A stretch of 64,000 nt of DNA from Escherichia coli 042 (GCF_000027125.1 NC_017626.1), one strand, 5' to 3'. Positions 12,821 to 12,936 are shown, counted from the stretch's first letter. Notes: generated by a model from the sequence alone, not told the origin. A program made the numbers and translations.

Positions 12821-12936
12821 CTGATGCCCTCACCCCGACCCTCTCCCACAGGGAGAGGGAGAAAACCAGCGCCGATTTTAACACCGTGCTCGATCGGTCC
12901 CCTCGCCCCTTTGGGGAGAGGGTTGGGGTGAGGGGC
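12821..12936. repeat. ~115-bp interspersed element with inverted termini, copy A
   Basis: CTGATGCCCTCACCCCGACCCTCTCCCACAGGGAGAGGG...CCCCTCGCCCCTTTGGGGAGAGGGTTGGGGTGAGGGG; second copy at 20047-20163 with near-identical ends. Confidence 0.75.

Follow-up and report, generated by a model that had tools for sequence, protein, structure and literature searches.

Divergent BoxC doublets in the Flag-2 flagellar island of Escherichia coli 042, and the association of BoxC repeats with DUF559 nuclease genes

The window, by which we mean the whole 64,000-nucleotide stretch of Escherichia coli 042 DNA (GCF_000027125.1, NC_017626.1) analyzed here, represents the E. coli Flag-2 flagellar island. By reading the sequence and by alignment, we found two related palindromic elements of ~116 bp in the window, copy A at 12821-12936 and copy B at 20057-20172. 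Both are located in intergenic spacers between co-directional genes of the Flag-2 operons, and the two copies are oppositely oriented relative to transcription. The flgG gene ends at 20034, upstream of copy B, and the other neighboring genes are as follows.

10306-12777, minus strand: Flag-2 glycosyltransferase gene; true start ATG at 12775-12777, 44 nt from copy A, from orthologue annotation
12956-13885, minus strand: lysine-N-methylase (FliB-like) gene; stop codon 20 nt from copy A
20241-20906, plus strand: Flag-2 flgH (L-ring) gene, downstream of copy B

A mechanically called open reading frame of 847 aa (10306-12849, minus strand) extends into copy A, and annotated orthologues of the glycosyltransferase begin at the ATG equivalent to 12777. 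The 847-aa frame reaching 12849 is a read-through artefact into the repeat, and the initial annotation was right to call this N-terminal extension spurious. At the 3' end of the glycosyltransferase gene we also observed a 30-nt AT-rich direct repeat (TTAAAAAATCGCGTTTTTTCGACATATCCC) at 10222-10251 and 10291-10320, the two copies being 90% identical and 69 nt apart.

Ordinary REP/BIME elements are present elsewhere in the window (3084-3110, 19074-19214, 22337-22420 and 28850-28876), and the REP pair at 19074-19214 includes a match to Rfam naRNA4 (19083-19159, 78 bits). A tRNA-Thr(CGT) gene at 48148-48223 is followed ~0.9 kb on by Rfam matches to C4 antisense RNA (49110-49198, minus strand) and isrK (49221-49299, minus strand); together these features may point to integration of a phage-related island at this tRNA. 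The glycosyltransferase/methylase region (window 12000-14000) has a best identity of 96.6-97.5% among 5426 complete E. coli genomes, and the flgG-flgH region (window 19800-20450) is 100% identical to strain 118UI. The Flag-2 island appears to be a mosaic.

The left ends of copies A and B match at 39/40 positions in the alignment, the right ends are ~90% identical, and the centers, of 40-41 nt, are only ~55% identical; a repeat finder groups the two copies as family D4. The termini of both copies are mutually inverted (CCCTCACCCC ... GGGGTGAGGG), and each copy has two local hairpins, one of the form CCCTCTCCC-ACA-GGGAGAGGG and the other either CCCTCGCCCC-TTT-GGGGAGAGGG or CCCTCTCCC-TTGA-GGGAGAGGG. 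The initial annotation had described this pair of related elements with shared, inverted ends and two internal hairpins each, and our reading and alignment bear out the description along with the coordinates of copy A. It had placed copy B at 20047-20163, an interval that begins 10 nt too early, in left flank common to both copies (AACGTGCGGT), and loses the right terminus; copy B starts at 20057 (CTGATG...) and ends at 20172 (...GGGTGAGGGGG). As RNA, each whole doublet folds into one long hairpin of -78 kcal/mol (z -7.1 and -6.7), and 0/200 shuffled sequences folded as well; as DNA, the folding z is about -6, counting Watson-Crick folding only. A scan of the whole window at the Rfam gathering thresholds gave nothing at either copy and four hits elsewhere.

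BoxC, a repeat of E. coli, was first described beside fabI/envM. The family, also named PIT or TMECO, has been catalogued since the 1990s, and we know of no explanation for its origin, its function or its means of spread. Holder et al. (2015) defined the BoxC motif (the PIT element, or TMECO) as 5'-CCCTCNCCC N3-6 GGGNGAGGG N3 GGGNGAGGG-3', PIT standing for potential intrastrand triplex (PMC4666352). K-12 has 23 units and five sites with closely spaced inverted pairs, each made of one type A and one type B unit, and most TMECOs occupy conserved loci across 56 strains (PMC4666352); elsewhere BoxC is given as a 56-bp family of about 32 copies (PMC2267715). No association of the motif with transposons, phages or plasmids was reported, and earlier work had seen no promoter, terminator or polymerase effect of it in vivo (PMC4666352). 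Sequences identical to the units in our window form an intrastrand purine-motif triplex in vitro by CD and NMR, in vivo footprinting gave no support for stable triplexes, and local variability is higher at TMECOs; the motif was viewed as a 'source of genomic instability' (PMC4666352).

This 27-base pattern has four exact matches in the window and none elsewhere in it than the two copies, compared to 0.00 expected in shuffled sequences, which together with the alignment confirms the existence of the two related elements. The components of the two copies are listed below.

12811-12826, no strand: copy A left tail AATGTGCGTGCTGATG, common to copy B and to the linker of the K-12 hrpB-mrcB pair (AACGTGCGCGCTGATG)
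12821-12936, no strand: copy A, a BoxC doublet composed of a minus-strand type-B unit, a spacer and a plus-strand type-A unit, in the 178-bp intergenic spacer between the lysine-N-methylase and glycosyltransferase genes
12827-12859, minus strand: copy A unit 1, BoxC/TMECO type-B-like, CCCTCTCCC TGT GGGAGAGGG TCG GGGTGAGGG, exact pattern match
12860-12899, no strand: copy A spacer, 40 nt between the hairpins (AGAAAACCAGCGCC...GTGCTCGATCGGTC)
12900-12934, plus strand: copy A unit 2, BoxC/TMECO type A with the usual stem mismatch, CCCTCGCCC CTTTG GGGAGAGGG TTG GGGTGAGGG, exact pattern match
12935-12951, no strand: copy A right tail GCAAAGCGCGCACAGAG, common to the doublet 3' of the Enterobacter asburiae DUF559 gene (GCCCAGCGCGCAGAGA)
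20057-20172, no strand: copy B, a BoxC doublet in the 206-bp spacer between Flag-2 flgG (lfgG) and flgH (lfgH)
20063-20095, minus strand: copy B unit 1, BoxC/TMECO type B, CCCTCTCCC TGT GGGAGAGGG CCG GGGTGAGGG, identical to K-12 TMECO #1/#4
20096-20136, no strand: copy B spacer, 41 nt, with a small internal palindrome (GGTGCACG...CGCGCACAGG)
20137-20170, plus strand: copy B unit 2, BoxC/TMECO type A, CCCTCTCCC TTGA GGGAGAGGG TTA GGGTGAGGG, equal to K-12 TMECO #2

Compared to the published K-12 units (Table 1, PMC4666352), the minus-strand unit of copy A equals TMECO #1/#4 except for TCG in place of CCG in loop 2, and its plus-strand unit equals TMECO #7/#11/#15 except for TTG in place of TTA. 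Under the second-loop rule, in which type A carries TTA, type B carries CCG and A pairs with B, copy B conforms exactly (CCG and TTA) and copy A has one-base variants (TCG and TTG). Both doublets are divergent (tail-out), with the hairpins toward the 40-41-nt spacer and the third GGGTGAGGG segments outward. The window copies are thus like the BoxC/PIT/TMECO family in motif, A/B loops, A+B inverted pairing, intergenic position, copy number and near-identity to K-12 copies; nothing essential differs, the only departure being the single-base loop 2 variants of copy A. Both Flag-2 BoxC sites are absent from K-12, which does not carry the Flag-2 locus. We are virtually certain that the two elements are doublets of the E. 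coli BoxC repeat, a feature already known, and BoxC was indeed among the families that the initial annotation had named for comparison. It is also very probable that divergent BoxC doublets, as non-coding intergenic repeats tolerated between the cistrons of two Flag-2 operons, are the explanation of the two elements. We found no sigma-70 promoter-like site in either doublet and no T-tract terminator after the BoxC hairpins, and the doublets appear to persist in operon spacers because they lack both.

A comparison of the five K-12 pairs places the window copies within a larger set of arrangements. Four pairs (hrpB-mrcB, fepB-entC, ygfF-gcvP and downstream of alx) are convergent, their third GGGTGAGGG segments facing each other over 16-29-nt linkers. 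In the lldD-trmL pair the hairpins face inward and the third segments outward, and this divergent layout is that of the window copies. The sequence AAYGTGCGNNCTGATG, which forms the left tail in the window copies, serves as the linker in the K-12 hrpB-mrcB pair, the outer flanks of the K-12 convergent pairs resemble the spacer ends of the window doublets, and both ends of the copy A spacer are common to other BoxC copies and to the doublet 3' of the Enterobacter DUF559 gene. Because tails and spacer ends are common to different arrangements, the BoxC family, judged from these alignments, is a mosaic of single units that may stand solitary, convergent or divergent. The same units also occur in K-12 singly or oppositely paired, the segments that end the window copies then being internal; the 'inverted termini' of the window copies are the outer segments of two independent BoxC units. 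BoxC-related copies were recovered from 5425/5426 complete E. coli genomes, at a median of 17 places per genome.

We compared the alleles at the two sites among complete E. coli genomes. The BoxC doublet allele at site B is present in 192 genomes. Other alleles at this site are a single REP (EC958 and O111:H8 8E), a truncated REP (strain A3), two REPs (strain 102651) and a BoxC element in which ~64 bp of hairpin and spacer are tandemly duplicated internally (S1-KEN-03-A). In all site B alleles the change spans CTGTAAGG to TAAACAGGCAG, and it is therefore a whole-spacer replacement. The flgG-flgH spacer (window 20035-20240) is a hotspot, with junctions constant across the strains compared. The site A doublet is present in 737 genomes; PSUO2 and S103EC have instead an unrelated 46-bp spacer with diverged gene ends and only a small unrelated hairpin. 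Site A spacers that carry no doublet could not be aligned with it, so no insertion junction was definable there, and no clean empty site was seen at either locus among the alleles compared. Neither copy has a target-site duplication or flanking direct repeats; any relation between the flanks is rather an inverted one, the left flank reading GTGCG(G/T)... and the right flank ...C(C/G)GCAC.

The motif is also found beyond E. coli. Published TMECO counts include 80 in Pseudomonas fluorescens Pf0-1, 69 in Polaromonas JS666 and 59 in Pantoea At-9b, with many other Proteobacteria represented (Table S1), and the motif is absent from Salmonella according to the main text (PMC4666352). We scanned one genome per species with the pattern; among the matches listed, Mitsuaria chitosanitabida predominates, and the scan is informative about anatomy and is not a taxonomic census. 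The exact motif occurs, among these matches, in Mitsuaria (Roseateles) chitosanitabida, a Methylomirabilota MAG, a Contendobacter MAG and another MAG. The Mitsuaria loci hold at least 145 units, and all 27 close pairs among the matches listed are divergent doublets whose units stand 30-272 nt apart. These doublets end in sharp, extended inverted sequences (gcccgaagaCCCTCACCCC...GGGGTGAGGGtcttcgggc) and vary in their interiors. The divergent doublet, the architecture seen in our window, looks like the discrete unit in the Mitsuaria genome. Its interiors often consist of short tandem repeats (7-20-nt units) or extra degenerate hairpins (L025 1626-1808, L081 167-319 and L087 4816-5005), as if the spacers expand by slippage. 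Between widely spaced Mitsuaria motif pairs we found no transposase, and the ORFs there are ordinary except for DUF559 genes.

Two of the Mitsuaria loci (L059 5881-6600 and L060 1113-1752) contain an ORF of ~140 aa exactly between units, which matches Pfam DUF559 (E = 2e-39). DUF559 has a Vsr-like PD-(D/E)XK nuclease fold (PDB 3HRL; PMC1189080). K-12 has one DUF559 gene, ycjD, beside fabI and near TMECO #9 (locus L136, K-12 1350800-1352000). The ycjD stop codon is within a BoxC-type hairpin (tcaCCCTCTCCCtgaaagaGCGAGGGGG), and a full type-A unit follows downstream on the same strand. Between ycjD and that unit, the final ~45 nt of the gene and its hairpin recur as a degenerate duplicate (L136, complement of 560-620), and the annotated YcjD proteins of some strains read through into this degenerate 3' duplicate.

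The overlap of gene end and repeat is visible in the protein tails. Among the 120 best YcjD homologues, 67 end at the C-terminus in PSPxPSP, in Enterobacter, Klebsiella, Kluyvera, Lelliottia, Leclercia, Phytobacter, Scandinavium and Franconibacter; this tail is the translation of CCCTCACCCnnnCCCTCTCCC, and the residues just before it vary freely. For the Mitsuaria DUF559 protein, 42 of the best 120 homologues carry the motif, in one of three frames (PSPxPSP in 4, PHPxPLP in 34 and LTPxLS in 4). In the control for these protein counts, 1/300 internal windows carried it. Since three reading frames are used, the conserved entity is the DNA and not the peptide. Salmonella names were not among the top YcjD homologue matches.

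We further analyzed 12 independent DUF559 loci obtained by exact-protein look-up, six of which were chosen as proteins with no visible tail. In 10/12 loci the stop codon is overlapped by a relaxed BoxC unit or has one no more than 12 nt away, and at the remaining two we found variant repeats that follow the same plan (pyrimidine run, loop, purine run, purine run). When the two Mitsuaria loci are added, a second unit stands 1-25 nt before the start codon in 6/14; the other 42 kb of DUF559 loci have only six motif units. In Enterobacter asburiae, the TGA stop codon of the DUF559 gene is located in a type-B loop, and 11 nt later comes a type-A unit and then GCCCAGCGCGCAGAG; this 3' doublet equals the copy A doublet of our window plus its right tail, minus 30 nt of spacer. 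The DUF559 gene is bracketed by units in the Mitsuaria, Salinisphaera and metagenomic loci. The physical association of BoxC units with DUF559 genes, in the two subclades sampled, is an observation that we hold with high confidence.

Motif-bearing DUF559 genes are found in Enterobacteriaceae, Burkholderiales, Salinisphaera, Pelagibius and metagenomic contigs, at sites that differ by taxon. The gene is between sapF and fabI in E. coli and between yggW and yggN in Enterobacter, within the fadB-fadA operon in Burkholderiales with gaps of 3-10 nt, between dinB and dnaE2 in one locus, and between ABC ATPase genes in two. Such varied sites are the pattern that would be expected of a small mobile cassette. 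We know of no transposition activity for DUF559. The DUF559 genes of L144 and L148 are flanked by CCCTCCCCC/GGGGGAGGG units, and that of L150 by CCTCTCTCC...GAGAGA...AGAGAGGGG units of the CTCTCTCC type; the repeats of different DUF559 clades all comprise a pyrimidine run, loop, purine run, short gap and purine run, and their sequences differ. The travel of repeat variants with DUF559 clades hints, in this small sample, at co-variation or co-evolution of nuclease and repeat.

The ycjD gene is present in 3377/5426 E. coli genomes, with a median of one copy per genome. When we sorted the strains of the published TMECO table (Table S1, PMC4666352) by phylogroup, the counts were as follows: group A, 13-24; B1, 25-30; C, 23; D, 12-15; E, 10-11; F, 6-7; B2, 1-2. 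The ycjD gene is reported from phylogroups A, B1 and C and otherwise from ST69 and ST182 alone (PMC12817139). The counts are highest in the ycjD-bearing groups A, B1 and C, which is suggestive and not decisive; the distribution follows phylogeny and could be the outcome of one or two past events. Groups D, E and F, described as mostly devoid of ycjD, nonetheless have 6-15 TMECOs, a result that counts against a partnership. An HMM search of the window turned up no DUF559 gene. We considered a DUF559 coding remnant at the left flank of copy A and rejected it, several stop codons being in frame with the unit. Our searches of the literature on DUF559, ycjD and Vsr-like proteins with repeats, whose coverage is incomplete, found no link to BoxC; the DUF559 association was not found in the searched literature, and the window feature itself is already known.

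We weighed four other explanations for the window elements, which are not all mutually exclusive. A classical MITE, to which the initial annotation likened the copies, would be a deletion derivative of an insertion sequence, its terminal inverted repeats being recognized by a DDE transposase and its insertion producing target-site duplications. The ~116-bp size, the inverted termini of ~35-40 nt, the multicopy intergenic distribution and the Mitsuaria divergent doublet, with sharp extended inverted ends (gcccgaaga...tcttcgggc) and variable interior, agree with this reading, and the window copies resemble MITEs in being small, non-coding, multicopy elements with terminal inverted repeats (CCCTCACCCC...GGGGTGAGGG plus adjacent hairpin arms). 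Unlike MITEs, however, they show no exact empty site: each alternative allele compared replaces the spacer as a whole. The sequence between widely spaced Mitsuaria motif pairs revealed no transposase gene, and no transposon link was reported (PMC4666352). The half-elements, moreover, behave as independent units that also occur singly and oppositely arranged, and the target-site duplications that the initial annotation proposed to look for are present at neither copy. We consider a MITE origin highly improbable; of the 'MITE-like' description, the small, dispersed, non-coding nature and the inverted termini stand, and the mechanism is not supported. The initial annotation had also reasoned that a lack of further copies would point to a local duplication, in this case within the Flag-2 island. 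The two copies are 7.2 kb apart in one gene cluster and have 10 nt of left flank in common, as such a duplication would predict, but their spacers are only ~55% identical and each unit in copy B resembles K-12 copies at other loci more than it does the units of copy A. The copy-number check that it recommended, with copies in all but one of the 5426 genomes, revealed a genome-wide family, and the two sites were filled independently (737 vs 192 genomes); local duplication is ruled out on these grounds.

The remaining two explanations concern structure. REP elements are known to set the relative expression of flanking genes as intercistronic hairpins, and the doublets might similarly act in cis as RNA hairpins in the operon transcript, blocking 3'-5' exonucleases or guiding processing and so setting the expression of the flanking flagellar genes. 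The location of both copies between co-directional operon genes, the -78 kcal/mol fold and the presence of a stable palindrome (REP, truncated REP or BoxC doublet) in every site B allele examined are consistent with such a role. We nevertheless regard it as quite unlikely, given that the copies are opposite in orientation relative to transcription, that many strains carry no doublet at either site, that the site A alleles with no doublet have only the small unrelated hairpin, that the family is dispersed beside genes of all classes, and that published tests in vivo detected neither promoter nor terminator activity nor any effect on polymerase (PMC4666352). Alternatively, BoxC may simply be DNA prone to form structures, served by no enzyme of its own: a triplex or hairpin would stall replication, and the repeat would spread or decay only by general recombination, gene conversion and slippage. 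Such a motif would account for the in vitro triplex and the higher local variability (PMC4666352), for the spacer replacement and ~64-bp internal tandem duplication at site B, and for the internal tandem repeats in Mitsuaria. It does not account for near-identical 35-nt units at dozens of unlinked loci and in distant phyla, or for units a few nucleotides from DUF559 gene ends in 10/12 loci, and in vivo footprinting is against stable triplexes (PMC4666352). This explanation also seems unlikely to us.

Among known systems, REP/BIME elements are like BoxC in being GC-rich intergenic palindromes that form mosaics of alternating units and linkers, and a REP fills the flgG-flgH spacer in other strains; they are, however, a different sequence family, and the true REPs of the window are families D1 and D3. 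REPIN/RAYT resembles BoxC in that two inverted short palindromic units and a spacer form one long hairpin, and in being intergenic and dispersed and occurring also as singlets (PMC3116915, PMC3337134, PMC5581495). A further likeness is the small nuclease gene flanked by repeats and single-copy in each genome (for ycjD, the median is 1). In sequence BoxC is unrelated both to REPIN and to the window REPs of D1 and D3, and it carries no GTAG or CGTC tag. In addition, RAYT is an HUH Y1 transposase, whereas the BoxC-associated protein has the Vsr-like PD-(D/E)XK fold and its link to the repeat is known here from gene position. The window doublets are analogous to REPIN/RAYT in doublet-hairpin architecture and not members of that system.

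By that analogy, we tentatively propose that BoxC units and doublets are the cognate repeats of a DUF559 subfamily, a second repeat-plus-nuclease partnership with a different fold, of which the window doublets would be non-autonomous members. The nuclease would recognize the unit of pyrimidine run, loop, purine run and purine run and would drive its spread, homing or homogenization. The relation could run in any of three directions: spread of the repeats by the nuclease, homing of the gene into existing repeats, or insertion of repeats next to the gene. Somewhat more guardedly, we suggest that the doublet itself could be a REPIN-like non-autonomous unit recognized by a YcjD-type DUF559 nuclease. 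Such a nuclease, Vsr-like (PD-(D/E)XK) and encoded elsewhere in the genome, would act in trans on the doublet and copy, move or homogenize it, its probable substrate being a hairpin or a triplex-prone single-stranded form exposed during replication. Spacer replacement and internal tandem duplication would then arise from recombination or slippage at the folded structures. We observed no movement of a doublet and no clean pair of filled and empty sites, which counts against this mechanism.

For annotation, the gain is that two unassigned 'MITE-like' elements become BoxC doublets and that the glycosyltransferase start is placed at 12777 and not at 12849. We know of no role assigned to YcjD/DUF559, a large family of nucleases. 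The DUF559 link, tight and broad in phylogeny, makes two problems one, the spread of BoxC and the role of YcjD/DUF559, and if the link is functional it would provide a second case in which a domesticated nuclease coexists with a population of intergenic repeats of its own.
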